DNA of 64,000 nucleotides, from contig CAVVWJ010000002.1 of assembly GCA_963751925.1 (NCBI GenBank), positions 278,292 to 342,291 of the forward strand. Direction: 5' to 3'. Origin of the DNA: an uncultured Gemmatimonadales bacterium (GTDB taxonomy: Bacteria > Gemmatimonadota > Gemmatimonadetes > Gemmatimonadales > GWC2-71-9). How positions within the stretch are numbered: position 1 is the first letter of the stretch; every line of letters begins with the position of its first letter. Below the pieces are notes generated by a model. It made no database searches. It was not told the DNA's origin and saw only the letters and a program-made list of their open reading frames with translations. Both the position numbers and the translations under genes were made by a program. Below are positions 27,889 through 47,216 of this stretch, piece by piece.

Positions 27889-28885
27889 TCTTACCTTCAC
27901 GGTCTCGGCCGATCTGACGGAGCGGCTCGACCGCTTTCTGGCCGATCAGCTGGGACTCTCGCGCACGCAGGCGGCGCGGCTGGTTGCTGACAAGCTGGTG
28001 GAGATCGATGGAAAGCCGGCCCGTGCCTCGCGGCTCATCGCAAAAGGTCAGCGCGTCACTGTCCGCATCCCCGATCAACAGCCGCCCCGGACCCTCCAAC
28101 CCAATCCGATCCCACTCTCAATTGTCTTTGAGGACGATGACCTCGCCGTCATCGATAAACCGGCCGGCCTGGTCGTACATCCGGCGCCGGGGCACTGGGA
28201 CGATACCCTGGTGAACGCGCTCGTAGCGCGCGGAACTACCCTATCCGGTGGAGCGGAGGGGCGGCCCGGTATCGTGCACCGTTTGGATCGGGATACCTCC
28301 GGCCTCATGATCATCGCCAAGACGGACCTGGCTCATCGCCGCCTGGGGGCTGCCATCGCCGCCCGCAGGGTGCGCCGAAGTTACGCCGCACTGGCCTGGG
28401 GCCACCTCGACTCCACCGAGCTTCGCATCGACGCCGCCATCGCCCGGCACCCCCAGGATCGAAAACGGATGGCTATTTCTCCCCTCGGCCGCACCGCGAG
28501 GACCGACGCCTCAGTAGTGGCACGATTCGGTGTCGCGGAGCTGCTCCGGCTGGAGCTTCATACCGGCCGCACCCATCAGATTCGGGTGCACCTGGAGCAC
28601 GTCGGCCACCCGATTGTGGGTGATCCGGTCTACGCCGGCGGCGGCAGCCGGCGGATCTCCGGCGCGGCCCGAAAAGCGGCCGAGCTGCTGGAGCGGGCGA
28701 CGCCCCGTCAAGCGCTCCACGCTGCTGCTCTGGCATTCCGCCATCCTCTGAGCGGAGCACCACTTGAGTTCCACTCCGAGTGGCCGACTGATTTACGTGC
28801 TGCACTGGTTGTCTTGGGTGGCCAAGAACTTGTTGCTCGCCCCGATCCCCTCAGCTATCTTCGGTTCTTTAATAGAGATGGCTAA
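27881..28885 (+). CDS. rluD: 23S rRNA pseudouridine synthase, RluD family (start uncertain)
   Basis: The catalytic motif HRLDRDTSGLMI and HQIRVHL are present. An S4 domain (ERLDRFLADQLGLSRTQAARLVADKLVEIDGKP) is encoded upstream of the first ATG/GTG/TTG (GTG 27998). The only start-like codon before it is CTG 27881. Confidence 0.8.
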   Translation: MPDLTFTVSADLTERLDRFLADQLGLSRTQAARLVADKLVEIDGKPARASRLIAKGQRVTVRIPDQQPPRTLQPNPIPLSIVFEDDDLAVIDKPAGLVVHPAPGHWDDTLVNALVARGTTLSGGAEGRPGIVHRLDRDTSGLMIIAKTDLAHRRLGAAIAARRVRRSYAALAWGHLDSTELRIDAAIARHPQDRKRMAISPLGRTARTDASVVARFGVAELLRLELHTGRTHQIRVHLEHVGHPIVGDPVYAGGGSRRISGAARKAAELLERATPRQALHAAALAFRHPLSGAPLEFHSEWPTDLRAALVVLGGQELVARPDPLSYLRFFNRDG

Positions 28886-29315
28886 CTCTCCCGCGCTCCA
28901 CGCCGTCGTATTTCGAATCGGTGAGGTTGTCTGCGCGGCCCCGGCAGGGATCGTGCGTGAGATCCTCCCTCGCCTCCCGGCTACCCGAATTCCGGGCGTG
29001 CCGGACGCGGTCGAAGGGCTGGTGAACGTCCGTGGCAGCCTCCTCACGGTTCTGGATGGACATCTGCTGCTCCAGCAGGAGCGGCGTCCGTTGGATGAGG
29101 GCGCGATCATCGTTCTCCAAGTCAAAGGACGCAACTACGGCTTGGGAGTCAGCGCGGTGCTCGACTTCCTCGAGGTGCCTGCAGCTTCCGTCGTCGAACG
29201 GCGCGAGCTGCCCGGTGTCGATCCCCGACTGGTCAAGGCCGTCGGGCTCGGGGCCGACCAGCACTTCATCCTGCTCGACGTAGACGCGTTGTTTGCGCCG
29301 ATCATCGGAGGCTAA
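28878..29315 (+). CDS. cheW: CheW-like coupling protein (first gene of the chemosensory/polarity cluster)
   Basis: VVFRIGEVVCAAPAGIVREILPRLPATRIPGVPDAVEGLVNVRGSLLTVLD is a CheW fold pattern. ATG 28878 overlaps the rluD stop by 8 nt. Confidence 0.85.
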   Translation: MANSPALHAVVFRIGEVVCAAPAGIVREILPRLPATRIPGVPDAVEGLVNVRGSLLTVLDGHLLLQQERRPLDEGAIIVLQVKGRNYGLGVSAVLDFLEVPAASVVERRELPGVDPRLVKAVGLGADQHFILLDVDALFAPIIGG

Positions 29316-29351
29316 GGAACCGGATCCTGCCACCACGCACGGAGGGAGTCT

Positions 29352-29714
29352 GTGAATCAAACTGTGCTCGTCTGCGACGATGCCATCTTCATGCGCACCA
29401 TGATCAGCGACATCCTGAGCCAGGCTGGCTTCGAGATCGTCGGGGAAGCCGAATCTGGGCTGCAGGCGGTCGAGAAGTACCGCGTGCTGAAGCCGGATCT
29501 GGTCACCATGGATATCGTCATGCCGGACATGGGTGGCATCGAGGCCGTGCGCGAGATCTGTAAGACCGATCCCGAAGCCAAAATTCTGATGTGCAGCGCG
29601 ATGGGCCAGCAGGCGCTGGTGGTCGAAGCCATCCAGGCCGGGGCCAAAGATTTCGTGGTCAAACCGTTCCAGCCTTCCCGCGTGCTCGAGGCAGTCCAAC
29701 GCGTCCTGGCTTGA
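29352..29714 (+). CDS. cheY: CheY single-domain response regulator
   Basis: VLVCDDAIFMR, LVTMDIVMPDMGG, MCSAMG and KDFVVKPF. GTG start is preceded by GGAGGGA. Confidence 0.9.
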   Translation: MNQTVLVCDDAIFMRTMISDILSQAGFEIVGEAESGLQAVEKYRVLKPDLVTMDIVMPDMGGIEAVREICKTDPEAKILMCSAMGQQALVVEAIQAGAKDFVVKPFQPSRVLEAVQRVLA

Positions 29715-29717
29715 CGG

Positions 29718-31604
29718 ATGGACCTGTCGAAGTACGTCGCTCTGTTCCTGGCAGAGAGCCGGGAGCACCTCGGCGCGTGCAATCAGTCTCTGCTGGCGTG
29801 GGAGCGTGACCCAGCTGCCGTCGAGCCGGTCGACCGGGTCTTCCGAGCCATCCACACGATCAAGGGGATGGCGGCCACGATGGGCTACTCGGGGCTGGCC
29901 CAACTGGCTCACCGCACCGAAAACCTGCTCGATGCACTGCGAAAAAGCCGAGTACCGGCCACACCCGCCGTCTTCCAGCTTCTCTTCCGGGCGATTGATA
30001 CGCTGGGCCGCGGGGTGGAAGAGGTGGCGACGGGAGCTGAGGGGGAAGCAGACCAGGAACTGATCGCGGAGCTCGACACCGCCTCAGCGCGACAGGTGGA
30101 TGCGGTGACGGTGACGGCGGTCCCAGGCGATTTGCCTGCCACTCCGCCAGTGCCGGCAGAGCCGCAGTTCCGGCGCGCCACCGACGCTCCCCGCACTCGC
30201 TCGGTACAGGTCGCCATCCGGACGGCGGCGGTCATGCGGGGTGCGCGAGCGGCGCTGGTGCTTCGCCGGGCCGAAGGTCTCGGGGTGGTGAGCGCAGTCC
30301 GCCCGCCGATCACCCAGCTGGAACGGGATGAGTTCGACGGCCGCTTTTCCTTTCGACTCTCGACTCGGGCCGAGGACGCGGCGGTCGAGGTCGAACTTCG
30401 CGCCGTGGGAGAGGTCGACTCGATTCAGTTCGATGCGACTGCAGCGGGCCCAGAGACGGTTCGTCGCGGCAGGCAGATCCGGGTGGACCTGGAGCGGCTC
30501 GACGCGCTGATGAAGCAGGTCGGAGAGCTCGTCGTCGCCAAGAACCGCCTCACCGTGCTGTCGGACGACTCGGCCGACCCGGTGCTCGGCGAACTCAGCG
30601 AGCGGATTTCGCGGCTCGTCTCCGCCATGCAGGCGGAGGTGCTCGCGGCGAGGATGACGCCGGTGGGCGAAGTATTCGAGCGGTTCCCCCGCTTGGCGCG
30701 GGACCTCTCTCGCGACCTCGGCAAGCGGATTCGCTTCGACATGGAAGGTGAGGAGATCGAGCTCGATCGCTCGATTCTGGATGAGATCGGTGAGCCGTTA
30801 CTCCATCTCATCCGGAATGCGGCCGACCACGGGATCGAGTCCCCAGACGAGCGGGCGGCCGCGGGCAAGCCCAGCGAAGGGCGCATCCTCCTCTCGGCGG
30901 CACGAGAGCGGAACACGGTAGCCATTCGCGTAGTGGACGATGGCCGCGGCATCGATCGAGAGAAGATCCTGGCCAAAGCCAGGCGTGAAGGCGCGGCGCC
31001 TGAAGCTGAGGCCCTGAGCGACGATCTCCTGGTCCGGGTCCTCGCCCGACCCGGGTTCAGCACCGCTGGCACGGTCAGCGGAGTCTCGGGCAGAGGCGTG
31101 GGCGTGGATGTGGTCATGACCCGGGTTCGAGCGCTCGGTGGGACCCTCGAGGTCCGGAGCGAGCTCGGCCGCGGCAGCACTTTCCTGATGCGGGTGCCCC
31201 TGACTCTCGCCATCGTCCGGGCCTTACTGGCCGAGGCGGGTGGCGAGCGCTACGCGCTGCCGCTGGCCTATGTGGCCGAGACGGTCGAGTTCGACCAGCG
31301 CGCGGTGACCTCGGTTCGTGAGCGCGAGGCGTTGGTGGTGCGGGATCAGGTGATCCCAACGGTTCATCTGCGGGATCTTGTCGCCTGCGGCTCGAATGTT
31401 GGGAGGGTGGGGAAGAGACCTACGGTGATTCTCGAGGTCGGAGAACGGCGAACCGCGCTGGTGGTCGACGCTTTGGTGGGGCAGCAGGACATCGTAGTCG
31501 AGCCGTTCGATGCTCCCCGTGGGCTCCCGGCCTTTGTGGGCGGGGCAACGATTCTGGCAGACGGCGCTCCCGCTCTCATACTGGACGCCGCGGCGCTCCT
31601 TTAG
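29718..31604 (+). CDS. cheA: chemotaxis histidine kinase CheA
   Basis: Hpt P1 domain FRAIHTIKGMAATMG, dimerisation region IRVDLERLDALMKQVGELV, HATPase motifs HLIRNAADHGIE / DDGRGID / GVSGRGVGVDVV, and a C-terminal CheW-like P5 domain. Confidence 0.95.
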   Translation: MDLSKYVALFLAESREHLGACNQSLLAWERDPAAVEPVDRVFRAIHTIKGMAATMGYSGLAQLAHRTENLLDALRKSRVPATPAVFQLLFRAIDTLGRGVEEVATGAEGEADQELIAELDTASARQVDAVTVTAVPGDLPATPPVPAEPQFRRATDAPRTRSVQVAIRTAAVMRGARAALVLRRAEGLGVVSAVRPPITQLERDEFDGRFSFRLSTRAEDAAVEVELRAVGEVDSIQFDATAAGPETVRRGRQIRVDLERLDALMKQVGELVVAKNRLTVLSDDSADPVLGELSERISRLVSAMQAEVLAARMTPVGEVFERFPRLARDLSRDLGKRIRFDMEGEEIELDRSILDEIGEPLLHLIRNAADHGIESPDERAAAGKPSEGRILLSAARERNTVAIRVVDDGRGIDREKILAKARREGAAPEAEALSDDLLVRVLARPGFSTAGTVSGVSGRGVGVDVVMTRVRALGGTLEVRSELGRGSTFLMRVPLTLAIVRALLAEAGGERYALPLAYVAETVEFDQRAVTSVREREALVVRDQVIPTVHLRDLVACGSNVGRVGKRPTVILEVGERRTALVVDALVGQQDIVVEPFDAPRGLPAFVGGATILADGAPALILDAAALL

Positions 31605-31613
31605 GAGGATGGC

Positions 31614-32234
31614 ATGGAAGACGTGCGTGACCTGAAGGACTCGCAGCTCGATGCCATCCGCGAGGTGGCCAATATCGGCGCCGGCCACGCCGCCACTGCG
31701 CTATCGCAAATGACCAATCGCACCATCATGATCACGGTGCCCCGCGTCAAAGTACGTCCCATCGAGGATGTCTGCGAGATGATCGGGAGCCGCGACGAGA
31801 TCATCGCCGCCGTCCTCATGCACATGATGGGCGATCTCACTGGCCGGGCGATGGTGTTGTTTCCCGAGGCCCAGGCGCGTACCATCTGCGACTTTCTCTT
31901 CCGGCGGGAACTGGGCACCACCAAGACATTCGATCCGATGGAGCAATCCGGCCTCAAGGAGGCCGGCAACATCCTGGCGAGCGCCTACCTGAACGCGCTG
32001 AGCGACTTCATGGGGATGATGCTGGTGCCCTCGGTGCCGAGCCTCGTCATCGATCTCAGTGGCGCGATCCTGACGACCGCAGCCCTCAACTTCGGGCACG
32101 ACAGAGATTACGCCTTTTGCGTCGAGACCTCCTTTCGGGTGGAGGGCTCGGCTCAACCACTCGGCGGCCACTTCCTGCTGTTGCCTGACGTCGCGTCCCT
32201 GCGCTCCATCTTCGACGCCATCCGCCTGCCCTAA
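31614..32234 (+). CDS. cheC: CheC-family CheY-P phosphatase
   Basis: Both E-x2-N-x22-P active-site motifs are intact: EVAN + 22 residues + P, and EAGN + 22 residues + P. AGGAGG lies upstream. Confidence 0.85.
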   Translation: MEDVRDLKDSQLDAIREVANIGAGHAATALSQMTNRTIMITVPRVKVRPIEDVCEMIGSRDEIIAAVLMHMMGDLTGRAMVLFPEAQARTICDFLFRRELGTTKTFDPMEQSGLKEAGNILASAYLNALSDFMGMMLVPSVPSLVIDLSGAILTTAALNFGHDRDYAFCVETSFRVEGSAQPLGGHFLLLPDVASLRSIFDAIRLP

Positions 32235-32237
32235 TCG

Positions 32238-34943
32238 ATGCCAGCCCCTGCGCTCTCCGAGCGCGATCTCACGGTGCTCCGCTCCTTCGCCCGTCGGATC
32301 GATCCTTCAGATGCCGGGGCCCACAACAACCTCGGCGTTCTCTATTACCAGAAGGGTCTGATCGAGGAGGCGATCGCTGAGTTCGCGCGGGCGCTCGAGC
32401 TCGATGCCAAGATGCAGGTGGCACAGACCAATCTCGAGATCGCCTATCGGGAGAGCGGACACTACGACCGGCGCATCGGCGATCTTCGGGATCAGGTTGC
32501 CCGCCTGCCGGGAGACCGAGCAGCACGCTGGGAGCTGGGTCGGGCGTACGCATCGCTTGGACGCCACGAGGAGGCGGTCGCTGAATTTCAGGCGCTGCTC
32601 TCCAATTACCCCGACGATGTTCCCGCTCTGCTGCAGCTGGGACTCGCCGAAAAGGCCCGAGGCCGGCTGGATGCGGCGAGCGATTGGCTGGCCCGAGCGT
32701 GCGAAAAAGATCCCGAAAGCCCGGTCCCGCGATTTCACCGCGGCGAGGTGCTGTACAACCGGGGCTTGAATGAGCTCGCGCTGGTCTCCCTCAAGGATGC
32801 CATCGCCCGGAACCCCGACTACGCCGAAGCGCATTATTTAATGGCGTTCGTCTACGGCGACCTGGGTCAGCACGAGGCGGCCCGCGCGGCGACCAAGCGG
32901 GCAGTGGCACTCAATCCGATGCTGGCGCGCGCGCAGGCGAATCTCGCGTTGGAGGGTGGCACCCTTCAGCGTCCCTCGCCGGAGCATGCCCGAAACGGCG
33001 GTTCGGCCGCAACGCCTGGTCCAGCGGTGCCGCAACCGGTAGCGGGCGCCCCGTTGGCGCACTACAACAACGGGACGACGCTTCGCCAGAAGGGGTTTCT
33101 CGAAGACGCGGTCAAAGAGTACCAGTCCGGCCTCGACCAGGGAGAAGATCGTCGGCTCAATCTTCAGGCGCTGGCCGAGGTACATCTTCTGCGGCGAGAT
33201 CTCCCGGCCTCGCTCGCGCTCTACGATGAGCTGGTGGGAGACTACCCGGATTCGCCCAAGCTTTGGAACGAGCGTGGGGTCTGCCTGCATCAGGCGGGAA
33301 ATCGGGAGGACGCCCTCGTCTCCTACGAGAAGGCCGTTGTAGCCGATCCCGCGTACAAGCTGGCATGGAACAATCTCGGCGTCCTGCGAGCCGGCGAGTT
33401 GTCAGGTGACGGTGCCGTTGCTGCGCTGCGATACGCCCTCGATGGCTCGCAGCCACTGTTCACGGCGCGTCTCAATCTGGCGCTGCTGTACCTGCAGCGC
33501 CGCCAGCATAAGGCCGCCCTCGAGGAGTACCAACGGGCCCTCACCGAGCAGCCATCCAGTGCGGTCGGGTGGAATGGTGTCGGCCTGGTGATGATGGAGC
33601 TCAAGCGCTACGAGGAGGCGCGGAACGCGTTCGGCCGTGCGGTCGACGCCGATGCCAACTTTGCGGCGGCGCATTACAACCTGAGCTTCATCCTGAGCCA
33701 GCTCGGGGACTTCGACGGAGCCCTGCGGGAAACCCGTCGGGCACTCGAGCTCGAGCCGCTGTACGTCCCGCAGAAGTTCGCCCTGGCGATCGACCTGCAG
33801 TACGAAGATCGCACCATTGCGATTGCGCCCGAGCTCGTGGCGGACGTCAGCGGGGACGAGCTTGCCGGCGAGTTCAACTACGATGCGCCTGCCCTCGATC
33901 AGCTGTTCGACGAGCTGGCACCGTCGCTGCCGCAGGAACCTGTCCCCGCGGACGACGATTCCCTGGACCTTGCCCGCGATCTCATTCGGAAGGGTCTGCT
34001 GGACGCTGCCGCGGCCGAGCTGGCGCGGACCTCCAGCCGCGCGGCCCCGCGCCCGGCCACCTCGGTCCTTCTGGGAGACATCTTCGCCAAGCGCGGCCTC
34101 TACGGCGAGGCGCTCGAGCGCTATCGGACGGCGCGCAGCATGGTGCCAGACGATCGGGATGCAACCCTGGGTGAGATCCGCGCACTGCTCTCCCTCGGCT
34201 GGGCTCCCGAGGCCCTCCCGTTGGCCGATGCCCTCGCCGCTCGCCTTGGCAAAGATGTCGATGTCCTGGCTGCTCGCGCCCGGGCGCGCATTGCGACTGG
34301 CGATGCTGCTGGGGCACTCGACTCCATTCGTCAGGCACAATCATTCGTCCCCGCCCGAGCTGATCTTCTCCACCTCCAGGCGCAGGCATCAGTTGGCCTG
34401 GGCGACCGGACCGCGGCGCTGGCGGCGTTCAACGCCGCGCTCCAGCTCGATCCTTCGCTGGTGCGGGTCTGGGTCGAGCTCGGCGCCCTGGAAGAGGACC
34501 GCCGCAATTGGACGGGCGCGCGTTCCGCCTACGAACGGGCCCTCGACCTGCTCCCAACCTTCGGTACTGCCGCCCTGGCACTGGCCGATCTGCTGCGCCG
34601 AACCGAGTCGCCCCGGGCCGCAGTGCCCGTTCTGGTTCGCCTGCTGGAAGCTGATCCGTACGAGCTGGAGGCATTGACCGCGCTGGGGCGCGCACTGCTC
34701 GAGGATGGGCGCACTGTCCAGGCGAGAGAGGCATTCGCCCGGGTGCTGCGCTTCGATCCCGATCATGCCGCCGCCCTGTACCACCAGGGCACCTGCTTCG
34801 CCCGGGAGCGGCAGTTCGAGGAAGCGGTCCAGGCCTGGGAGAGGGTAGTCGAGCTGGCTCCCGAAGGACCCTATGCCAGCGAGGCCCGCAGCCGCTCCCG
34901 CTCCGCCCGCGATCTGCAGCACATCTTCGCGACGGCGGGCTGA
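32238..34943 (+). CDS. 901-aa tetratricopeptide-repeat protein
   Basis: The whole length reads as consecutive TPR units (e.g. AHNNLGVLYYQKGLIEEAIAEFARALELD, AWNNLGVL..., AHYNLSFILSQLGDFDGALRETRRALELEP). No other domain is visible. Confidence 0.85.
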   Translation: MPAPALSERDLTVLRSFARRIDPSDAGAHNNLGVLYYQKGLIEEAIAEFARALELDAKMQVAQTNLEIAYRESGHYDRRIGDLRDQVARLPGDRAARWELGRAYASLGRHEEAVAEFQALLSNYPDDVPALLQLGLAEKARGRLDAASDWLARACEKDPESPVPRFHRGEVLYNRGLNELALVSLKDAIARNPDYAEAHYLMAFVYGDLGQHEAARAATKRAVALNPMLARAQANLALEGGTLQRPSPEHARNGGSAATPGPAVPQPVAGAPLAHYNNGTTLRQKGFLEDAVKEYQSGLDQGEDRRLNLQALAEVHLLRRDLPASLALYDELVGDYPDSPKLWNERGVCLHQAGNREDALVSYEKAVVADPAYKLAWNNLGVLRAGELSGDGAVAALRYALDGSQPLFTARLNLALLYLQRRQHKAALEEYQRALTEQPSSAVGWNGVGLVMMELKRYEEARNAFGRAVDADANFAAAHYNLSFILSQLGDFDGALRETRRALELEPLYVPQKFALAIDLQYEDRTIAIAPELVADVSGDELAGEFNYDAPALDQLFDELAPSLPQEPVPADDDSLDLARDLIRKGLLDAAAAELARTSSRAAPRPATSVLLGDIFAKRGLYGEALERYRTARSMVPDDRDATLGEIRALLSLGWAPEALPLADALAARLGKDVDVLAARARARIATGDAAGALDSIRQAQSFVPARADLLHLQAQASVGLGDRTAALAAFNAALQLDPSLVRVWVELGALEEDRRNWTGARSAYERALDLLPTFGTAALALADLLRRTESPRAAVPVLVRLLEADPYELEALTALGRALLEDGRTVQAREAFARVLRFDPDHAAALYHQGTCFARERQFEEAVQAWERVVELAPEGPYASEARSRSRSARDLQHIFATAG

Positions 34944-34946
34944 GCC

Positions 34947-35987
34947 ATGGCGCTCGAAGGGCCGCTCAAGGAGTTCCACATCCAGGATGTCTTTCAGCTC
35001 CTGGATCTGGGACGGAAAACCGGCGCGCTGCGAGTTACCTCGGAGCTTCGCCAGACCTCTGCGTCGGTGTCTTTCGAGCGAGGCGGCGTCGTCGCTGCCA
35101 CGCTGGGAAAAACGCCGCAGCGCATCGGGACTCGACTGGTGCGAATGGGGAAGCTCTCGGCCAAAGAGCTCGACCGCGCGTTGGGCCAGCAGGAGAAGGG
35201 CGACGCCCGCAAGCTGGGGGACATTCTCGTTGCTAACGGTGCGATCAGCCGGCGAGAGCTGGAACGTCAGCTCAAGGCCCAGGTCGAGGAGACCATCCTC
35301 GAGCTCCTCAGCTGGACCGAAGGCCACTTTCGCTTCGAGGAAGGGGCACCCTGCGAGGCGATCGTAGACGCGCCGGTGCGAATTGGGACCGAAGGGCTGC
35401 TGATGGAATCGGCTCGGCGGCATGACGAGTGGTCGAGGATCGAGGCGAAGGTGCCGCACCTCAAAGTCATCCCGCGGCTACCGCCGGCTGAGTCAATCTC
35501 CTGCGGCAAGCTCGATCTGGCCCCGTTCGAGTGGGAAGTGCTCGCGGCGGTGGACGGCCAGCGGGACCTGCATGCCCTCGCGGATATTCTGGGCCGGTCT
35601 GAGTTCGACGTGGCGAAGACGGTGTTTACGCTGGCGGCGGCGGGCGTGATCGTCCTCGACAACTCCAACGGAACCGCCGAGAACGGCCGCGACCACAGCG
35701 CGGTCCTCCGCCCGGCCCGTGAGGCTTTGGGTAAAAACGAATTCGAGAAGGCTGCCAAGATCCTCCAGGAAATCTTGCGGGCGGACCCTCTTATGCCCGA
35801 GGCCCGCCGTCTCTACGGCGTGTGCGAGGCGGCACTGGGCCGGTTCAGGAGGGCAGCAGAAACCTGGAAGAGTTGGGGCCGCCTCGGTACCCGCACGCCG
35901 GCCGAAGAAGGAATGTCGGCCGAAGTGGAACGTCTTCGGCAGGCAGCTGAAATTTTGGCGGAGGAGCTCGAGAGATACCGTGACTGA
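34947..35987 (+). CDS. PATAN/DUF4388-domain protein with helical insertion and C-terminal TPR-like tail
   Basis: The N-terminus MALEGPLKEFHIQDVFQLLDLGRKTGALRV is the DUF4388 signature. The inserted helical hairpin is MGKLSAKELDRALGQQEKGDARKLGDILVANGAISRRELERQL. Then ILELLSWTEGHFRFEEG. Confidence 0.75.
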   Translation: MALEGPLKEFHIQDVFQLLDLGRKTGALRVTSELRQTSASVSFERGGVVAATLGKTPQRIGTRLVRMGKLSAKELDRALGQQEKGDARKLGDILVANGAISRRELERQLKAQVEETILELLSWTEGHFRFEEGAPCEAIVDAPVRIGTEGLLMESARRHDEWSRIEAKVPHLKVIPRLPPAESISCGKLDLAPFEWEVLAAVDGQRDLHALADILGRSEFDVAKTVFTLAAAGVIVLDNSNGTAENGRDHSAVLRPAREALGKNEFEKAAKILQEILRADPLMPEARRLYGVCEAALGRFRRAAETWKSWGRLGTRTPAEEGMSAEVERLRQAAEILAEELERYRD

Positions 35988-36834
35988 TGACATCCGGATG
36001 TTGACTGCCCGTCTCGCAGACGAGCCCTCCAGTCTCGCCTTTCTCGAGCTGGGTGAAGCCTTGCGCCGCCGCGGTCAGCTCGAGGCGGCGTACAAAGTGG
36101 CGCGCGGCGGAGTCAGCCGATATCCCGGCCTCGCCGACGCGCACGATCTCATGGCTCGCATCCTGGGTGACCAGGGTGATTTGGCCGGCGCCTTCGATGC
36201 CTGGGCCGAGGCGCTCCGGTTCGACCCGATGCGGATCGGCGCACTCAAGGGAATCGGCTTCCTGTACTACCGGGCAGGAGACATCGCTGCGGCGCTCGAT
36301 CACCTCCATCGGGCTGCTGAGATCGATCCGGACGATCTATCGATCTCACAGGCAGTCGATCGAATCAGGAGCGCTGCGGAAACGCCGGCTGTGTCAGACA
36401 CGCCTGAGCCGGACGCCGCAGTTGAGGCCCCGGCCGTCGAGGAGGCGGGTGCACGGTCCGAGAACACCGCTTCATCGACGCCGGCATTCGGAGGCAATGA
36501 ACGGAGCGATCATGGCCTCATGCTGGTCGATGGCAATGGTCTTCGCCTGAGCGGCACCCTGCGAAGCCCCAGCAACGAGGATGTGGGAGACCGCGTTGCC
36601 GCGGAGCTTGCGGGTGTCTCCAAGGAAGCGTCACGGACGACGAAGCTGTTGGGGCTCGGTCCCTGGCAGGCGATCGCAGTTGAGTCGCCCGAAGGCAACC
36701 TGTTCATGGTCGCTCCCACTCAGGAGACCGTGCTGCTCACCCTGCGTGATCCCTCGTTGCCAATGGCGCGGCTGGGACTGATCGCCGAGCGGGCGGCGCA
36801 AGATGCCCGCACCTGGCTGGGGGCCCAGAAATGA
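35980..36834 (+). CDS. TPR - Roadblock/LC7 fusion protein
   Basis: N-terminal TPRs (AFLELGEALRRRGQLEAAYKVARGGVSRYP, AHDLMARILGDQGDLAGAFDAWAEALRFDP). An acidic linker follows. The C-terminal Roadblock-like fold is LMLVDGNGLRLSG...VAAELAGVSKEA...AIAVESPEGNLFMVAP...LLTLRDPSLPMARL. Start is GTG 35980 or ATG 35998. Confidence 0.7.
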   Translation: MTDDIRMLTARLADEPSSLAFLELGEALRRRGQLEAAYKVARGGVSRYPGLADAHDLMARILGDQGDLAGAFDAWAEALRFDPMRIGALKGIGFLYYRAGDIAAALDHLHRAAEIDPDDLSISQAVDRIRSAAETPAVSDTPEPDAAVEAPAVEEAGARSENTASSTPAFGGNERSDHGLMLVDGNGLRLSGTLRSPSNEDVGDRVAAELAGVSKEASRTTKLLGLGPWQAIAVESPEGNLFMVAPTQETVLLTLRDPSLPMARLGLIAERAAQDARTWLGAQK

Positions 36835-37178
36835 ACGGGGCCAATCTGGCGCTCGAGCGAGTCACCCGGGTTCCTGGAGTCCGCGGGTCACTCCTGATCT
36901 CCGCCGATGATGGACTCGTCGTGGCTGAACGCCTCATGGACGGGATCGATGGACGCGCGATTGCGGCGTTGGCGGCCAGCCTCGTCCAACGATTGGGTCG
37001 GGCGATCGGCGGAGCGGGAATGCGCGCCCCGACGTTTGTTCACCTTCGCGGCAATGCTGGCTCCGTGCTGGCTGCGCCCGGGCGCTATGATCTCGTCCTG
37101 GTGGCCCTGATGGCGCCCGATGCGAACCTGGGGCTCGCTCGGCTCGAGATGCTCGATGTGGTCGGTCACCTCGCCTGA
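36831..37178 (+). CDS. Roadblock/LC7 (MglB-like) protein
   Basis: LERVTRVPGVRGSLLISADDGLVVAE...DGRAIAALAASLVQRLGRA...FVHLRGNAGSVLAAPGRYDLVLVALMAPDANLG is the canonical Robl_LC7 pattern. ATGA overlap upstream. Confidence 0.8.
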   Translation: MNGANLALERVTRVPGVRGSLLISADDGLVVAERLMDGIDGRAIAALAASLVQRLGRAIGGAGMRAPTFVHLRGNAGSVLAAPGRYDLVLVALMAPDANLGLARLEMLDVVGHLA

Positions 37179-37639
37179 TGCGTGCGCTCGAGCCCTGGGT
37201 CGCCGGTCCGATGCAGACCTTCATCACAGAGTCCTCGGCCAGGCTGATCCTGTTGATGACGACCTCGGGCCAGGTGGTCGCGCAGCACGGGTTTTCCCGT
37301 TCGGTCGAAGTGATGACGGCAGCGGCCTTGGGCGCGGGGATCGTCGCCTCGACTGAGGAGCTGGCGCGGCTCATGGGGACATCGCGCTTTGGGGCCGTGG
37401 TGCACGGCGGTAGCCGGCAGAGCTGTATGCTCTCGGCCTTTGGCACCCCTCGCGGGCGATGGATCGGCTTGGTGGTTTTTGGCTCCGAAACATCGGTGGG
37501 AATCGTGCAGCTCTTCTTCGATCAGATGGTGGAGCAGTTGGTGACGGCGGCGCCTCGCGAACAATCAGTTGCGCCGGTGTTGGCGGAAAACTTCGAGCGC
37601 GAGCTCGATACCAGCCTCAAAGAGCTCTTCGGACGGTAA
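37178..37639 (+). CDS. divergent Roadblock/LC7-like protein with C-terminal helical extension
   Basis: [47 protein letters not shown]...[26 protein letters not shown] has the same alpha-beta-alpha layout as the neighbouring gene. TGATG junction. Confidence 0.6.
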
Positions 37640-37644
37640 CTGAT

Positions 37645-38247
37645 ATGTCTCTGGTCAACTTCACAGCGCGTGAGATCACCTGCAAGATCGTCTACTACGG
37701 TCCGGGACGGTCCGGCAAGACGACCAACCTGCAGTACGTCTATGGCCGCGTGCCCGAGGCACGACGTGGGCGTATGGTCTCGCTCGCAACCCAGACCGAT
37801 CGGACGCTCTTCTTCGATTTCCTTCCTTTGGAGCTGGGGACGATTTCCGGCTTCACCACCAAGTTCCAGCTCTACACCGTCCCTGGGCAGAGCTACTACA
37901 ACGCCACTCGCAAACTCGTGCTTCAGGGCGCCGATGGTGTCGTCTTTGTCGCCGATAGCCAGGCTCGGCGATTCGATGACAACCTCGAGAGCCTGCAGAA
38001 TCTTCAGGACAATCTTCTGGGGCAGGGTGTCGACGTACGGCAGCTGCCAATCGTGTTCCAATACAACAAACAGGATCTGCCTCGGGACTTGATCCTGGGG
38101 CAGGACGAGATGGATGATGCCCTGAATTTCCGCTCGGTGCAGAGCTATTCCGCAGATGCGCTGCACGGGAGCGGCGTCTTCGAGACCCTCAAGGGCGTGT
38201 CGGAGCTGGTGCTGAAGCGGCTGGCCGCGGGAGCCCAGGTGGCATGA
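37645..38247 (+). CDS. mglA: MglA-family Ras-like GTPase
   Basis: Near-collinear with Myxococcus MglA: [25 protein letters not shown] (P-loop), [12 protein letters not shown] (intrinsic Arg), YTVPGQ (catalytic Gln), [15 protein letters not shown] (NKxD). ATG 37645 is preferred over the 37459 extension. Confidence 0.92.
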
Positions 38248-40175
38248 CCGCCACGCTGAATCCCCTGTATCGGTTCGACACCCTGGTCGTAGGCGCGGCC
38301 AACCGTCTCGCGTTCACCGCGGCCAAGGCAGTGGCCGAATCACCGGGCACGATTTACAACCCGCTGTTCATCTACGCCCGCCCTGGTCTGGGAAAGACTC
38401 ACCTGCTCATGGGTATCGGGCACGCCGCTCGGGCGATCAACCCGCAGCTGTCGGTCGAGTACCTCACCCTGGACGAGTTTGTCGAGTCGTTTCATGCCGC
38501 GGTAGCGGCAGGGCAGGGTGAGGCGTATCGCCGGCGCTTCATCGACGTCGATCTCTTGCTGGTGGACGACGTGCAATTCCTCACTCACCGCCGCGAGATG
38601 CAGGCGGAGCTCCTACGCCTGAGTGACGCCCTGCAGACAGCAAACCGCCAGATCGTCCTCACCAGCGATCGTCCGCCCGCCGAGATCGAGGCGCTCGACG
38701 AGCGGTTGATCCGCCGCTTCGCCGGCGGGCTCGTCATCGACGTGGCGGCACCCGATTACGAAACCCGGGTTGCCATTCTTCGCCGGAAAGCGGAGGAGCG
38801 CCGGGCCAAGTTCGGGAACGGCGTTCTCGAGGCTGTCGCGTCGCTGACGATCGACAACGTGCGGGAGCTGCTGGGCGCCTTGAATCGGTTGGTCGCGTTT
38901 CAGGCGGTCAGTGACACGCCGCTGCAGCCCGCCCAGGCCCGTGCCCTCGCCGGCGGCTCGGATGCGCCGGAGACCGGGCCGGTAGAACCCGCCGCGGACG
39001 AATTCGGCGACTTCCTCTCCGAGGTCTCTGCCACCGTTGCCCAGCAGGTGGATTCGTGGAAGACGAAAGTCGCCGCGGCAATTCTCCGGTGGGAAGGTGA
39101 AGGATTCCAGATCACTCGGCTGGAGAGCCTGCTGCAGCAGGAGATGACTACCGACCCGGAGCAAGTGCTTCGTCAATTTGAAGCGGACATCCGCCGGCTT
39201 CAGGCGCTCCGGACCGAAGCGGCGGAGCTGGCACCGGATCTGGCGGGCTCCAACGCATACCGCGATCCGGATGATCTCGCCGGGGCCGAGGCACTGACTC
39301 AACGCGCCCGCGACGGGGCGCACCCGCCGCCGGCACCGTCTCCCCTGTGGCTGCTGGAAGACCTGGTCGAGGCACCGGGGAACCGCATGGCCTTGCAGGC
39401 CGCGCGGGCGGTTGTGGCGGAGCCAGGGGTGCGATACAACCCGCTCGTCATCGTGGGCGCCACCGGTGTCGGCAAGACCCACCTGCTTCATGCACTGGGC
39501 AACGAGCTCGCTGCCAAGCGAAACGGTCCCATCGCGTGTCTCAGTGCCCACGAATTCACCAGCGAGCTCATCGAAGCGATCGATCGCGATGCCATCGGCG
39601 CCTGGCGCGCGAGATATCGCACTGCCGTGGCCTTCCTGCTCGATGACGTGCACCTGGTGGGCGACAAGGATCGGACCCAGGACGAGCTCTTCGTGCTGTT
39701 CAACTGGCTGATGGAAGCCGGCCGCCAGATGATCTTCACGTCTGCCGTACCCCTGGCGGACATGGTGGGCGTCGAGGCGCGGTTGCGAACCCGTCTCGAG
39801 GGCGGATTGGTGGTCGATCTTCCGGCACCAGATCGGGATATTCGTCAGCATGTGATCGAGCGACTGCTCGATGGCAAGCTGCCCCAGCCTGACGTGGAGC
39901 TGATCAACTATCTCGGGTCTCGTCCCGCGGAATCGGTGCGAACCGTGCACGGCCTGGTACAGCGGGTCCTCGCGGCGGCCGAGACCCAGGGTGTCGCCGC
40001 CACCTCCGTGCTCGCGCGTGAAGTGCTCGAAGGCGCGGTGCCGCGCGCCGCGCGACGCACTCCGAACACCCGCTCGAGCGGCGTGGTGGCCCCTGCCAGC
40101 GGGGCCCGAAGCCGGGAAAAGATCGTGTGGGAATGGCCCGACGTCGGTGACCGCATCGTCGAGGAGTGGCGCTGA
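38244..40175 (+). CDS. tandem DnaA-type AAA+ ATPase (two domain-III copies, no domain I or IV)
   Basis: Copy 1: [78 protein letters not shown]. Copy 2: [72 protein letters not shown]. No DnaA-box-binding HTH is present. Confidence 0.85.
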
Positions 40176-41794
40176 TGGCGATCAAGGGCAGCCTCAAAGA
40201 GGCCAGTCTTCCTGACGTCATCCAGCTGCTCTTTCTGGGCCGGCGGACCGGATGCCTTGCCCTCGCCGATCAGCACAACTTCGGCACCATTTATCTGGAC
40301 GAGGGACAGATCGTCTACGCCTCGATCGTGAACCGCCGCGATCGTCTGGGTGACATTCTCCTGCGAAAGGGACGGATCAGCGCCGAGCAGCTGCAGCAGG
40401 CCATCGATGCGCAGGTCGACGACCGGCAGCACAAGCTCGGCGAGATTCTCGTCGGCCTGGGAGTACTGAGCCGGGAAGAGCTGGAGGAGTACATCCGCAT
40501 CCAGATCGAGGAAGCGGTTTACTACCTGTTCACCTGGTCTTCCGGGACCTTCAACTTCGAGGCCGGCGTTCGCCCCGAACGCGAGGATTTCCTGGTCCGG
40601 ATCAGTCCCGAAGCGCTCCTGCTCGAAGGGGCCCGCCGAGTGGACGAGTGGAGCCTGATCGAGAAAAAGATTCCGTCGCTCGATCTGATCTTCTCGGTGG
40701 ACCAGAAACACATCGGTGAATCGGCCCCCACGCTCTCGGCCGAGCAGCAGCGCCTGATGCCGCTGATCGATGGCACCCGCGACGTCCGCCAGATCATCGA
40801 GGAGTCGGGGATGGTCGAGTTCGAGGTCGGCAAGGCGTTGTTCGGCCTCATCACCGCCGGCTTTGCCCATCGGGTGGGAACCTCAGCCGGGGCGACTGCC
40901 CCCAAGGTCAACGACAGTCGGGTCGAAGAGCACCGGAATCTCGGGATCGCTTTCTATAAGGCCGGGATGCTGGAAGAGGCGCTGCGTGAATTCCGCCGCG
41001 TCACCGATCTTCGGCCGTCGGACAGCAGCGCTCCTTTGTTTCTCGGACTCATCGCCATCCGGCAGGCGCGTTGGGAAGATGCGGCCGAGGCGCTGCGGCA
41101 AGCTTCAGGTTCCGGGGTGCCCAGGCCGGCGGCGCTGCACAACCTCGGCTTTGCTCTCGAGCAGCTGGGCCGCCTGGATGAGGCCGAGGCTGCCTACGGC
41201 GACGCTGCCGGACGCTCCCGCGACGACGGCCGAATCATGCTGGGCTGGAGTATCGTGGCCCTGAAACGGGGAGACTACCAGGTCGCGCTTGGCCGGATGG
41301 CCCGGGCCCGCGAGCTGCTCAACGGACGTCCCACACCCGCCCTTTGGTACTGGGCCGCGACCTTGGCCAGTGCCGGGATCAACGATGCCGAAGGCGCTCT
41401 CCGCTCGGCGAAGGACGGTGTTGCCGCTTTCCCGAACAACGCGGTGCTGCAGAACAATCTGGCAGTGCTGCTCGAGCTGAATGGCGATCTCGAGGGCGCC
41501 GAATCGATGCTCCGAGCGGCGCTGGCTGAAGATCCGGCGCTACCCCAGGTCTCCAAGAATCTGGCCGACATCCTGTATCGGAACGGACGCTTTGACGAAG
41601 CGGGCGAGGCCTACGAGCGCGCGGCAAAACTCAATCCCGAACTGGGAGACGATCTCTACTTCAAGCTCGGCAACATCGCATACAAGCGGCGAGATCACGA
41701 TCGCGCGAGGGAAAGCTGGGCCCAGGCGACATCGCTCAACCCGGGACATCAGCTGGCCCGGGCAAATCTCGAGATGCTGGATCTCTCCCAGTGA
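40175..41794 (+). CDS. PATAN/DUF4388 - TPR protein (paralogue of 34947..35987)
   Basis: [30 protein letters not shown] aligns with the N-terminus of the paralogue. Helical insertion LRKGRISAEQLQQAIDAQVDDRQHKLGEILVGLGVLSREELEEYI, then YYLFTWSSGTFNFE. The C-terminal half is TPR. The ORF track start GTG 40166 is an alternative. Confidence 0.8.
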   Translation: MAIKGSLKEASLPDVIQLLFLGRRTGCLALADQHNFGTIYLDEGQIVYASIVNRRDRLGDILLRKGRISAEQLQQAIDAQVDDRQHKLGEILVGLGVLSREELEEYIRIQIEEAVYYLFTWSSGTFNFEAGVRPEREDFLVRISPEALLLEGARRVDEWSLIEKKIPSLDLIFSVDQKHIGESAPTLSAEQQRLMPLIDGTRDVRQIIEESGMVEFEVGKALFGLITAGFAHRVGTSAGATAPKVNDSRVEEHRNLGIAFYKAGMLEEALREFRRVTDLRPSDSSAPLFLGLIAIRQARWEDAAEALRQASGSGVPRPAALHNLGFALEQLGRLDEAEAAYGDAAGRSRDDGRIMLGWSIVALKRGDYQVALGRMARARELLNGRPTPALWYWAATLASAGINDAEGALRSAKDGVAAFPNNAVLQNNLAVLLELNGDLEGAESMLRAALAEDPALPQVSKNLADILYRNGRFDEAGEAYERAAKLNPELGDDLYFKLGNIAYKRRDHDRARESWAQATSLNPGHQLARANLEMLDLSQ

Positions 41795-42612
41795 CGCAGG
41801 GTGACGAGGCAGCCTTCATGGCGCTGACACGGAAGATCTCGCGTGAGGCCGGCCTCACGCTGCAGGACTACAAGGACAAGTGCCTCCGTCGGCGCATCGC
41901 CGTCCGGATGCGGGCCTGCGGCGTCCACACGTACCCCGACTACCAGCTGGTGCTTGACGCGAGTCCGGCGGAGTACCAACGGCTCAAGGACGCCCTCACG
42001 ATCAACGTGACCCGCTTCTATCGAAACGCTGATACCTGGAACCTTCTCCGGGCCGGTCTGCTGGATGAAGTCTTTCAGGCGGCACCCGGGCCGGTGAGCG
42101 CATGGAGCGCGGGATGTTCATCGGGCGAAGAGCCCTATACCCTCGCCGTCCTCATGGCGGATCTGGTCGACCGGCAGGGTCGTCCTGAGCGGCTCGGACT
42201 GGTGACAGTTGACGCCACCGATATCGATCGGCAGTGTCTCGAGCTGGCCAAGGCCGGCCGCTATAGCCGTGACGCCATCGCCGAGGTCCCACCCGAGCTG
42301 GTCGAGCGCTACTTCGAGGAGGATGGGGCAGGGTGCCGGGTCATCGACCGGGTGCGCCAGCGTGTGGTCGTGCGCGCCCTCGATCTGAGCTCTGACCCGC
42401 CTCCGCGGCTCAATTATCAGCTCATCCTCTGCCGGAATGTTGTCATTTACTTCGGACGCGCCGCGCAGGAGCGCGTGTTCCTGGCGTTTGCCGATGCGCT
42501 CGCTCCCGGCGGGCTTCTGGTACTGGGGAAGGTGGAGACACTCTTTGGAGCCGCTAGAGAACGCCTCACGCTGCTGGATCCGCGCGAGCGGGTGTATCGG
42601 CGGACCGCATGA
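41791..42612 (+). CDS. cheR: chemotaxis protein methyltransferase CheR
   Basis: LTINVTRFYRNADTW, SAM-binding AWSAGCSSGEEPYTLAVLM, and ILCRNVVIYF. Confidence 0.9.
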   Translation: MTQGDEAAFMALTRKISREAGLTLQDYKDKCLRRRIAVRMRACGVHTYPDYQLVLDASPAEYQRLKDALTINVTRFYRNADTWNLLRAGLLDEVFQAAPGPVSAWSAGCSSGEEPYTLAVLMADLVDRQGRPERLGLVTVDATDIDRQCLELAKAGRYSRDAIAEVPPELVERYFEEDGAGCRVIDRVRQRVVVRALDLSSDPPPRLNYQLILCRNVVIYFGRAAQERVFLAFADALAPGGLLVLGKVETLFGAARERLTLLDPRERVYRRTA

Positions 42613-43097
42613 GCGGACGAGAGCTCGTCGTGCGCGTGGCCGACCTGAGAATCGGCGTAGAGGATGACACTCTGGTCACGGTGGGCCTGGGAAGCTGCGT
42701 CGCCATCCTGCTCCACGATGCCACGGCTCGAGTGGGAGGATTAGCGCACGTTCTCCTGCCATCTCCGGCGCTGAGTCGGAGCGATGGGAACCTCGCCAAG
42801 TTCCCCCAATCAGCGGTGCCCCGCCTGCTCGAGCTGATGGCCGCCGACGGCGCCAGCCCACGGCGCATCACTGCCCGTCTCGCCGGTGGAGCGAGCATGT
42901 TCGCCGCACTCGCACCGCTCGGAACGATTCACATGGGTGAGCGAAATCTGGTGGCGGCACGACAGGTCTTGAGCTTGCACGGGATCCCTCTGTCTGGCGA
43001 AGCGGTCGGCGGTGACTTCGGCCGAACGGTGCGCATGCGGGTCTCGGACGGGCGAGTCGATGTGAGCACGGTGGCGCATGGTGTCCAGCAGCTCTGA
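42609..43097 (+). CDS. cheD: chemoreceptor glutamine deamidase CheD
   Basis: [14 protein letters not shown]...[16 protein letters not shown] and [11 protein letters not shown]. Confidence 0.9.
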
Positions 43098-44151
43098 CCC
43101 GAGCCGGGTCCTGGTGGTGGACGACAGCCCGTTCTTCCGCCGGCTCCTCACCGACGTGGTCGACGGCTCGGGCGAGTTCCGCGTCGTGGCCACCGCTCGC
43201 GATGGTATGGATGCGCTGCGGAAAGTCCGCGCCCACGCTCCCGACGTCATTCTCATGGACATCGAGATGCCCGAGCTCGATGGTCTGGGTGCCATCGGAT
43301 ACATCATGGCTGAGTCGCCTCGGCCGATCGTCGTTGTGAGCGCGCATGTGGGACCGGGAATGGCCGCCGCGATTCGGGCGCTCGAGCTCGGGGCAGTGGA
43401 TCTGGTAGCCAAGGAAGAGGAGCGCGGAGCGGCGGCGACGGCCCGATTCGCCGAGCGCCTGATGGCGGTGCTGCGCACGGCCCGTGCGGCGGAAATCCGG
43501 CGGCTCGACCGCCCTGAGCGCCGCGAGGGTGTGGTAGCGGCAGCAACATCACAGGCCACAGGACACGCTCGCCTCTGTGTCGCAATCGCGGCCTCCACCG
43601 GAGGACCACGTGCCCTCGCCGACATCGTTCCGCTCCTTCCGACCGGCTTCCAGGCTGGGGTGCTGATCGTTCAGCACATGCCACCGAAGTTCACCCACAG
43701 CTTGGCGGAGCGGTTGGCGTCGCAGAGCCGGATGAAGGTGGTGGAGGCACAAGATCAAATGTCGCTGGAGCCGGACACAGCCTACGTGGCCCCGGGAGAC
43801 TACCACATGCGGGTTGCCACCGACTCCGGTAGAACCCGGATCACTCTGGACCAGGAGCCCTCGGTGTGGGGAGTTCGACCCGCAGCTGATCCACTGTTCA
43901 GCAGCGTCGCCCGTTGTTTTGGGCCGCGTGCCGTCGGCGTAGTCCTCACCGGGATCGGGCGTGATGGCGCCCAAGGCTTGCGGCAGATTCACGATGCGGG
44001 TGGTGTGGGCATTGCCCAGGACCGTGCGACAGCGACGATCTATGGTATGCCTGCAGCCGCGCTCCACGCCGGAGGGGCCGACTACGTCCTGCCGGTGTCC
44101 GAGATCGCGGGTCAGGTCGCAGCCGAGTTGACCCGGCTGAGGAAGCTATGA
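43078..44151 (+). CDS. cheB: chemotaxis response regulator protein-glutamate methylesterase CheB
   Basis: Receiver domain [12 protein letters not shown]...[13 protein letters not shown]. Esterase domain [25 protein letters not shown] and IAQD. Confidence 0.93.
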
Positions 44152-44573
44152 GCAGCCGGGGTGGTGGCTTCCTGCTGGTCCGCACCGGAAGCCGGAGAGT
44201 CGGGTTGGAGCTATCGCATGTTGTTCAGGTTACCGAGATCGGAGCGGTTCACCCGGTGCCGGCCATCGATCCAGCGCTCCGGGGCATTGCCGCGGTTCAC
44301 GGCCGGATGGTTCCGGTGGTGCACCTCGGGGCATTGCTGGAGGCAAGGCCGTGCCCGCCACGGGAGGGAAACCTCGCGGTATTGATCGTGGTCGATGGCC
44401 GGCACATGTGCCTGGAGATAGACGAGGCGGAGATCGTGGTACGCCAGGCGCCGCTGCCGGTCCCTCCCGGGGCGACACTTCCCTGGGCTGTCGGGGTCGC
44501 CCGCCTTCCTGACGGGCTCGTCCCGTTGCTGGATCTGTCTCTAGTCAGCTCACGTTTTCTGGAGGCGGCATGA
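44148..44573 (+). CDS. CheW-like protein (divergent)
   Basis: [57 protein letters not shown] is a CheW-like pattern. ATGA junctions on both sides. Confidence 0.8.
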
Positions 44574-45913: not shown

Positions 45914-45990
45914 CTGTTCTCTGCTCGCTCGCTGCTCACATCGTCCCACTGCAGGGAAAGCCAACGGCCGTTCGGGTCGGACCAGTTACC

Positions 45991-46806: not shown

Positions 46807-46819
46807 TAGCCTAACGCCT

Positions 46820-47011: not shown

Positions 47012-47080
47012 CGAGGTGTCGGATATCACGGCACGGTCTCTGCAAGCTCACTAAAAAAGTTACAGAAGGCGTCGCCCAAA

Positions 47081-47155: not shown

Positions 47156-47216
47156 CTCGCAGCGTCTCATGCGCTGTTCACTGGCCCGATGGGGCCGTCC
47201 TGTTTGGAGATCGAGA

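Follow-up and report, generated by a model that had tools for sequence, protein, structure and literature searches.

What might a single mglA gene need three consecutive Roadblock genes for, and which of the three encodes MglB? This question is raised by a 64,000-nt stretch of DNA from an uncultured Gemmatimonadales bacterium (contig CAVVWJ010000002.1, positions 278,292 to 342,291 of the forward strand), referred to below as the window, that is, the whole stretch that was analysed, whose own numbering is used throughout. The original prediction had described a tetratricopeptide repeat (TPR)-Roadblock fusion, a canonical 115-aa Roadblock protein and a divergent 153-aa Roadblock-like protein encoded immediately upstream of mglA, and had suggested that the array supplies both the GTPase-activating protein (GAP) of MglA and a Roadblock-based guanine nucleotide exchange factor (GEF) or adaptor for the same GTPase. 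Our analysis revealed that it is the third open reading frame (ORF) that encodes MglB, and profile comparisons identified the first two, here called R1 and R2, as additional Roadblock proteins. The genes in question are as follows.

35980-36834, plus strand: ORF1 (R1), TPR-Roadblock fusion of 284 aa (Pfam TPR_2 and Robl_LC7)
36831-37178, plus strand: ORF2 (R2), stand-alone Roadblock/LC7 protein of 115 aa (Pfam Robl_LC7)
37178-37639, plus strand: ORF3, MglB orthologue of 153 aa (PDB MglB, NCBIfam MglB, structure prediction with AlphaFold2 (AF2), Foldseek)
37645-38247, plus strand: mglA, Group 1 MglA GTPase of 200 aa (PDB MglA)

Identity of the three Roadblock proteins

ORF3 is the MglB orthologue of this locus, and its C-terminal helix is the known C-terminal helix of MglB (Ct-helix). 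The protein reaches only 17.1 bits with Pfam Robl_LC7; its best PDB sequence matches are MglB of Myxococcus xanthus (E-value 3.6e-10) and of Thermus (7e-6), and it matches the NCBIfam MglB model NF052242, built on Thermus-type MglB, over its full length (E 1e-8, 35.3 bits, the equivalog cutoff of 200 not being reached). The AF2 model of ORF3 (predicted local distance difference test score, pLDDT, of 73.5) shows the order a1-b1-b2-a2-b3-b4-b5-a3 plus a separate C-terminal helix at aa 139-151. Upon Foldseek comparison of this model, the top 30 matches were all MglB chains of M. xanthus or Thermus, MglC appearing first at rank 42. Furthermore, among the family-specific hidden Markov models (HMMs), that of ORF3 fitted best the MglB proteins encoded by plain mglBA loci of other phyla, and the terminal motif F(E/A)..L...L..LF(G/Q) of ORF3 can be aligned with the C-terminal ends of such foreign MglB proteins. 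Among the MglA contacts known from M. xanthus MglB, A64 corresponds to A57 of ORF3, kept in 57 of the 64 MglBs embedded in chemosensory (che) loci, and R98 corresponds to the invariant R94 (phmmer alignment). The Ct-helix of M. xanthus MglB is a GEF-active, allosteric element that binds MglA and drives nucleotide exchange (PMC11016934). Thus, the Roadblock fold and the C-terminal helix claimed for the 153-aa protein were borne out, while its description as the divergent member next to a canonical 115-aa protein has to be turned around, ORF3 being MglB and ORF2 not.

The GTPase encoded downstream shares 58% identity with M. xanthus MglA (PDB E 5.8e-73), and the P-loop GxxxxGKT, R53, TVPGQ and Q82 are all invariant between the two, its sequence placing it among the Group 1 MglAs.

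Profile matches identify ORF2 as a generic Roadblock/LC7 protein that is an orthologue of neither MglB nor MglC. It scores 40.3 bits with Pfam Robl_LC7 (E 2.6e-10), the gathering score being 23, and the R2 family profile detects in the PDB a Thorarchaeota Roadblock protein (4e-19), CvnB5 (4e-11), MglB (8e-7) and LAMTOR2 (about 1e-6), dynein LC7 being matched as well. MglC (7ct3) is reached at 0.04 and ranks under about 45 other Roadblock entries, MglB among them. With the profile of the R1 domain, MglC was not among the PDB matches at E <= 10, and MglC orthology of either protein was rejected on these two results. The R2 family is small, comprising 229 representatives among 1.84 billion proteins; for only one cluster of distant representatives was a taxon name found, Longimicrobiaceae.

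Public annotation of these families was observed to run the other way. The ORF3 family (homologues P0241-P0360) is uniformly labelled as hypothetical protein and carries no Pfam match in every public source listed, and the label Roadblock/LC7/MglB family sits on ORF2 instead. This amounts to a systematic annotation trap, in which the true MglB of these genomes is called hypothetical and a protein that is not MglB carries the name of the MglB family.

ORF1 consists of TPR helices (aa 1-135; Pfam TPR_2, 7e-12), a linker rich in A, P and E (aa 136-177) and a C-terminal part (about aa 178-284, nt 36511-36831) that profile comparison identifies as a Roadblock domain. The Pfam Robl_LC7 match of the latter (aa 178-253; 1.1e-4) reaches 22.2 bits against the gathering score of 23, and the same family was matched by all 60 R1 family members scanned, at best with 4e-7. 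A profile of the R1 domain only, built from diverse loci, matched Roadblock proteins only in the PDB, including one of Thorarchaeota (7e-6), Roadblock3 of Prometheoarchaeum (2e-5) and MglB (about 1e-3). In the AF2 model of full-length ORF1, computed from a 60-sequence alignment, the TPR half forms eight helices with pLDDT 81-96. Helix a2 of the R1 domain (ORF1 aa about 209-232) carries a near-invariant E-A-x-R motif, in which Arg is invariant across 32 diverse sequences, and is followed by an L..LG.W segment with an invariant Gly and a near-invariant Trp; this region is a candidate interaction surface. In the distant R1 of locus L068 (8155-9063 of that locus) the Roadblock domain is complete and helix a1 is present, and R1 of Gemmatimonadales has the A/P/E-rich linker in place of the a1 region (window 36385-36510); hence, the R1 domain of the window may be a Roadblock domain truncated at its N-terminus.

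Pairwise profile alignment with hhalign indicated that R1 and R2 are each other's closest paralogues, nearer mutually than to MglB: the R1-R2 pair aligned with E 1e-12 (97.8% probability, 98 columns), as compared with 6e-7 for R1-MglB and 2e-9 for R2-MglB. Apparent natural fusions of R1 with R2 or of R2 with MglB, which might have served as Rosetta-stone evidence, were rejected as frameshifted chimeric gene calls with Arg-rich stretches in the wrong frame; these include representatives P0403, P0404, P0418, P0421, P0428, P0430, P0439 and others with an R2-like domain.

The predicted positions of the three Roadblock ORFs agreed with the ORF coordinates, as did the ATGA overlap between ORF1 and ORF2 and the TGATG junction, a 1-nt overlap, between ORF2 and ORF3. 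ORF1 starts with GTG, and its first 8 nt (GTGACTGA) are shared with the 3' end of the upstream gene, which codes for a PATAN-TPR protein; in favour of this start, residues 3 and 5, which lie before the internal Met7, are near-invariant across the family. The spacer of 5 nt between the ORF3 stop and mglA also stands, but not the start at 37646 that had been implied, since the reading frame from there holds stop codons and the true start is 37645.

Conservation of the array beside mglA

The order R1-R2-MglB-MglA is kept across Gemmatimonadota. When species-representative genomes were scanned with an MglA alignment, 80 loci (cited here by L numbers) with MglA identities from 96% to 58% were obtained, and the ORFs neighbouring these mglA genes were classed with HMMs built from the R1, R2 and MglB families. 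Among 48 che-containing loci whose sequence extends 1.8 kb or more upstream of mglA, R1, R2 and MglB were found in this order by HMM in 45, so that all three Roadblock genes, and not just one, are conserved beside mglA in relatives. R2 and MglB were present in the remaining three (L055, L067 and L068) as well, L055 and L067 being tallied with a TPR protein in the R1 position. In L068 the close-family HMM gave no match at this position, and inspection by hand revealed a TPR-Roadblock fusion of 302 aa whose Roadblock domain is complete. R1 was TPR-fused in 42 loci and unfused in three. The junctions were retained along with the genes: of 56 loci, 49 show a 4-nt and 5 a 1-nt overlap between R1 and R2, and between R2 and MglB a 4-nt overlap occurs in 37 loci and a 1-nt overlap in 16. 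In L036-L051, the median identities to the window were 33, 41 and 43% for R1, R2 and MglB versus 73% for MglA, that is, all three Roadblock proteins are kept though they diverge faster than the GTPase. Full-length homologues of the array proteins number in the hundreds at 70-98% identity, and the retention in dozens of species shows that the array did not arise by chance.

In Zixibacteria and Ignavibacteriales, which lie beyond the phylum, genes for PATAN, TPR-Roadblock and R2 precede mglA, and the MglB gene follows it directly. Since R1 and R2 are kept upstream of mglA where MglB has moved downstream, they constitute orthologous groups of their own, and the comparison indicates that they are older than the phylum and not recent duplicates of mglB. 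Plain mglB-mglA pairs were found in Desulfuromusa, Geobacteraceae, Thermodesulfobacteriota and Eisenbacteria and in a second Gemmatimonas paralogue.

One locus of Ignavibacteriales (L077, 5977-13288) was observed to contain, in this order, PATAN, a small transmembrane protein, the TPR-Roadblock protein, a 353-aa membrane Roadblock protein, R2, MglA, MglB and a PilB-type ATPase. The C-terminal domain of the 353-aa membrane protein represents a fourth Roadblock domain (24.4 bits), MglA has a C-terminal extension of 130 aa, and the PilB-type ATPase (T2SSE and MshEN domains) ties the module to type IV pili. The che-mgl cluster of the Gemmatimonadota type was also seen on contigs labelled Acidimicrobiia (L011, 84% MglA identity) and Alphaproteobacteria (L062, 71%), which are probably mis-binned contigs of metagenome-assembled genomes.

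The surrounding chemosensory operon

The array lies within a co-directional string of 18 genes (28764-45913), in which neighbouring genes overlap or lie at most 36 nt apart, a context of che genes, PATAN proteins and a DnaA-like AAA+ protein that was absent from the original prediction. The same string order recurs across Gemmatimonadota. The 14 genes around the array are listed below in their order, the three Roadblock genes and mglA standing between the first PATAN-TPR gene and the AAA+ gene; all were assigned with Pfam.

28764-29315, plus strand: CheW
29352-29714, plus strand: CheY
29718-31604, plus strand: CheA
31614-32234, plus strand: CheC
32238-34943, plus strand: 901-aa TPR protein, between CheC and the first PATAN gene
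34947-35987, plus strand: PATAN(DUF4388)-TPR protein 1 (DUF4388 6.7e-31; NF053729 41.6 bits, cutoff 38)
38244-40175, plus strand: 643-aa protein with two tandem AAA+ modules like DnaA domain III (Bac_DnaA 1.5e-91, two stretches)
40166-41794, plus strand: PATAN(DUF4388)-TPR protein 2 (DUF4388 2.4e-38; NF053729 47.6 bits, cutoff 38)
41791-42612, plus strand: CheR
42609-43097, plus strand: CheD
43078-44151, plus strand: CheB
44148-44573, plus strand: CheW
44570-45040, plus strand: CheW
45041-45913, plus strand: TPR protein

The che set of the operon thus comprises CheA, three CheW, CheY, CheR, CheB, CheC and CheD, and all junctions in the che half at 41791-45913 overlap or abut. A scan of 27500-47400 for promoters and terminators gave counts no higher than in shuffled sequence and was uninformative, so that the operon assignment rests on junction spacing. 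No gene for a methyl-accepting chemotaxis protein (MCP) was found among the ORFs scanned across the 64-kb window, and the dedicated MCP of a Frz-like system is therefore missing from the cluster.

The stop of the gene for PATAN-TPR protein 1 overlaps the start of ORF1, and this gene is kept upstream of R1 in relatives. Both PATAN proteins match, at about aa 59-112 and inside the DUF4388 match, an MshEN-related motif for binding of cyclic di-GMP (c-di-GMP) (NCBIfam NF053729). These motif matches suggest that c-di-GMP feeds into the module. On the other side of the array, the start of the AAA+ gene overlaps the mglA stop (ATGA). Residues 5-226 of its product match DnaA in the PDB (3e-56), and its Pfam matches include no family of the N-terminal domain (domain I) or the DNA-binding C-terminal domain (domain IV) of DnaA. 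The gene is kept after mglA in most che-mgl loci of Gemmatimonadota and is absent in L057-L063, Zixibacteria and Ignavibacteriales. Farther away in the window, a DivIVA gene lies upstream of the operon (22410-22928) and the dcw cluster of cell-wall and division genes (ftsI, murE, murF, mraY, murD, ftsW ... ftsA) lies downstream (50446-63575).

Proposed roles of the additional Roadblock proteins and comparison with known systems

We give about an even chance to the reading that the three Roadblock genes are functional, co-translated parts of an MglA polarity module wired into the chemosensory operon, in which MglB would regulate MglA and R1 and R2 would form an accessory platform. MglB alone would provide GAP activity on MglA, along with nucleotide exchange via its Ct-helix; both GAP and GEF behaviour have been assigned to MglB itself in recent work (PMC11016934, PMC13408092). 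R1 and R2 may build an accessory Roadblock dimer, in the simplest case an R1:R2 heterodimer, which might stack on the MglB dimer or on MglA by analogy with MglC in Myxococcus or with the Roadblock layers of the Ragulator-Rag system. The TPR arm of R1 could dock a partner, be it MglA-GTP, a co-encoded PATAN-TPR/c-di-GMP sensor or CheY~P. The first of these candidates is suggested by analogy with SgmX, which binds MglA via its C-terminal TPRs (PMC11580455), and with the TPR protein Bd2492, which binds MglA directly (PMC3983030). The Frz-like Che pathway, together with c-di-GMP, would then set the site of MglB action and thereby the polarity or activity of MglA. In M. xanthus, MglC connects RomR with MglB, and MglA-GTP causes its release (PMC10329633). 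RomR has a narrow range, largely Deltaproteobacteria plus Acidobacteria (PMC4546325), so that another adaptor is needed here, and R1 and R2 would replace the RomR/MglC layer in Gemmatimonadota. In agreement with what had been noted before, no RomR-like gene (receiver domain, Pro-rich region and Glu-rich tail) was found among the window ORFs scanned, RomX and RomY not having been specifically searched for.

Several observations weigh against this reading. The C-terminal domain of ORF1 was modelled by AF2 with pLDDT 25-55 and no confident fold; this was not taken as a negative result because three independent profile tests agree, and of the two proteins whose Roadblock fold had been put to question, ORF3 models as a Roadblock/MglB fold and R1 is recognized by profiles. 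Some lineages can do without the TPR arm, R1 being unfused in L058, L059 and L061. Two further MglA-facing positions of M. xanthus MglB are altered: G68 of the interface is E61 in ORF3 and Glu in 50 of the 64 che-embedded MglBs, and the contact residue N37 is S30. Likewise, the KRK patch through which M. xanthus MglB binds MglC (K14/R115/K120) is not conserved, with R115 replaced by Q111 (Q in 37 of the 64) and K120 by Q116, K14 being left unaligned. Hence, any stacking on MglB would have to occur via a different interface. Finally, both the R1/R2 heterodimer and its attachment to MglB or MglA are putative, being deduced from paralogy, gene order and coupling.

A more specific version of this proposal is put forward only tentatively, and we consider it possible but doubtful. 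In it, a multi-layer Roadblock stack would physically couple chemosensory and c-di-GMP input to the Ras-like GTPase in Gemmatimonadota, and in simpler form in Zixibacteria and Ignavibacteriota, with an R1:R2 heterodimer placed on the MglB dimer and the R1 TPR arm sensing MglA-GTP, CheY~P or a PATAN sensor. If true, such a stack would represent a route for Frz-type signals to the polarity module that is independent of RomR and MglC, as well as a prokaryotic counterpart of Ragulator-Rag layering.

R1 and/or R2 might instead serve as alternative or auxiliary GAP subunits, as heterodimer partners of MglB or as co-GAPs, which would make a 1:3 MglA:MglB-family system comparable to the 1:2 systems or to RomY. 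The fold common to all three proteins is consistent with this, a small subset of Group 1 MglAs is coupled to two MglB-family genes, only one of them in the co-evolving clade (PMC4316618), and the MglB/RomY pair (PMC9481161) shows that bipartite GAPs exist. However, RomY is not a Roadblock protein, the solved structures of the MglB family are homodimers, R1 and R2 resemble one another more closely than either resembles MglB, and mglA separates MglB from R1 and R2 in Zixibacteria and Ignavibacteriales. We therefore regard this possibility as unlikely.

A dedicated Roadblock GEF for MglA, of the kind proposed for Ragulator and formed by R1 and R2, with MglB as a separate GAP, was judged distinctly unlikely and less probable than the accessory platform. 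In its favour, R1 and R2 are paralogous Roadblock subunits encoded side by side and coupled in translation next to the gene of the GTPase, platforms of Roadblock and longin domains are known in eukaryotic GEFs (PMC3747258), no RomR-like gene was seen among the window ORFs scanned, and RomR has a narrow range (PMC4546325). Yet ORF3 retains the Ct-helix that is GEF-active in M. xanthus (PMC11016934, PMC13408092), so that a separate Roadblock GEF is not required; no catalytic exchange signature is readable in R1 or R2, and R2 is closest to generic LC7-type Roadblock proteins without known GEF activity. Thus, of the two functions originally offered for the extra Roadblock proteins, that of an adaptor is plausible and fits the operon context, and that of a dedicated GEF found no direct support and is rendered less necessary by the conserved Ct-helix of MglB.

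It seems very improbable that R1 and R2 regulate another NTPase of the operon, the double DnaA-like AAA+ protein or CheA, in place of MglA. Such a role would fit Roadblock proteins as regulators of NTPases, and the AAA+ gene, coupled in translation to mglA, accompanies it in most loci of Gemmatimonadota; nevertheless, R1 and R2 still adjoin mglA where the AAA+ gene is missing (L058-L061, Zixibacteria, Ignavibacteriales), and are kept beside it also where no che genes occur within 10 kb. An explanation of the extra Roadblock ORFs as decaying mglB duplicates or annotation artefacts, to which the weak Pfam scores of ORF1 and ORF3 (22.2 and 17.1 bits) and the low-confidence model of the ORF1 domain might point, can practically be dismissed, as it is refuted by the hundreds of full-length homologues at 70-98% identity, the phylum-wide retention with conserved overlapping junctions and the strong profile-profile matches.

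The closest known counterpart of the preferred accessory platform is the polarity module of M. xanthus (MglA, MglB, MglC, RomR/RomX and RomY under Frz control). Both have a Group 1 MglA beside an MglB with a Ct-helix, extra Roadblock protein(s) beside the GAP and a CheA/CheW/CheY/CheR/CheB pathway functionally tied, putatively so in the present locus, to the GTPase module. In contrast to M. xanthus, where frz, mglBA, mglC and romR occupy separate loci (PMC4316618), all components are gathered here in one operon. Two extra Roadblock proteins are present, one of them TPR-fused and neither an MglC orthologue, and MglB has not kept the KRK patch that binds MglC in M. xanthus. PATAN/c-di-GMP proteins and the DnaA-like AAA+ protein are added, and neither a RomR-like gene among the window ORFs scanned nor an MCP gene in the cluster was found. 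In Myxococcus, the step from Frz output to the MglA/MglB polarity switch has yet to be settled (PMC10329633), and the roles of RomR/RomX and MglB are under revision (PMC13408092). The phylum-wide coupled operon, with its che genes, MglA, MglB, two Roadblock proteins, two PATAN proteins and the AAA+ protein, therefore offers a short list of candidates for the missing link between Frz and MglA, and an independent natural experiment in which a Ras-like GTPase is wired to chemosensing.

More than one Roadblock gene per mglA is also found in the 1:2 MglA:MglB-family systems (Group 3 and a small Group 1 subset; Wuichet and Sogaard-Andersen 2014), in which only one MglB-family gene belongs to the clade co-evolving with MglA and PATAN genes occur occasionally nearby. 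Unlike these systems, the present locus has three Roadblock genes and not two, and neither a TPR fusion nor embedding in a che operon was described there. The listing of that study gives for G. aurantiaca only 'MglB>MglA>' and 'PATAN>MglA>-PATAN>' (PMC4316618), and in the organisms studied mglA was not near the genes of Frz or RomR partners (PMC4316618). Our literature search (MglA with Gemmatimonadota, Roadblock with CheA/CheW, PATAN with MglA) returned no account of a triple array, of a TPR-Roadblock fusion or of che-embedded mglBA. Multiple MglB-family genes per mglA are thus already known; what the locus adds, as far as this search shows, is the third Roadblock gene, the fusion of TPRs to a Roadblock domain and the placement of mglBA among che genes. 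The value of the locus lies mainly in its operon-level wiring, the conserved 18-gene operon suggesting that chemosensing and cell polarity are hard-wired to each other through additional Roadblock adaptors.

At the level of the superfamily only, the locus resembles Ragulator (LAMTOR2/3, LAMTOR4/5) with the Rag GTPases, in that several paralogous Roadblock domains are associated with one small-GTPase system. The detection of LAMTOR2 by the R2 profile and the shared concept of stacked Roadblock dimers with nucleotide-dependent contacts (PMC10329633) add to this likeness. Unlike Ragulator, it has no LAMTOR1-like wrapping subunit and its MglA carries no Roadblock domain of its own, and heterodimers and stacking are only putative here. 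SgmX of M. xanthus and Bd2492 of Bdellovibrio, the latter binding also a c-di-GMP receptor and RomR (PMC3983030), resemble R1 as TPR proteins functionally tied to MglA, a likeness of domain type; unlike R1, they are TPR-only effectors with no Roadblock fusion. The actinobacterial conservons (CvnA-D) differ in using a Group 2 MglA, one Roadblock protein, a membrane histidine kinase and CvnC, with no che pathway, TPR fusion or PATAN. Like the present operon, they couple input of the sensor-kinase type with a Roadblock protein (CvnB) and a GTPase of the MglA family, and the R2 profile, as given above, detects CvnB5 at 4e-11.

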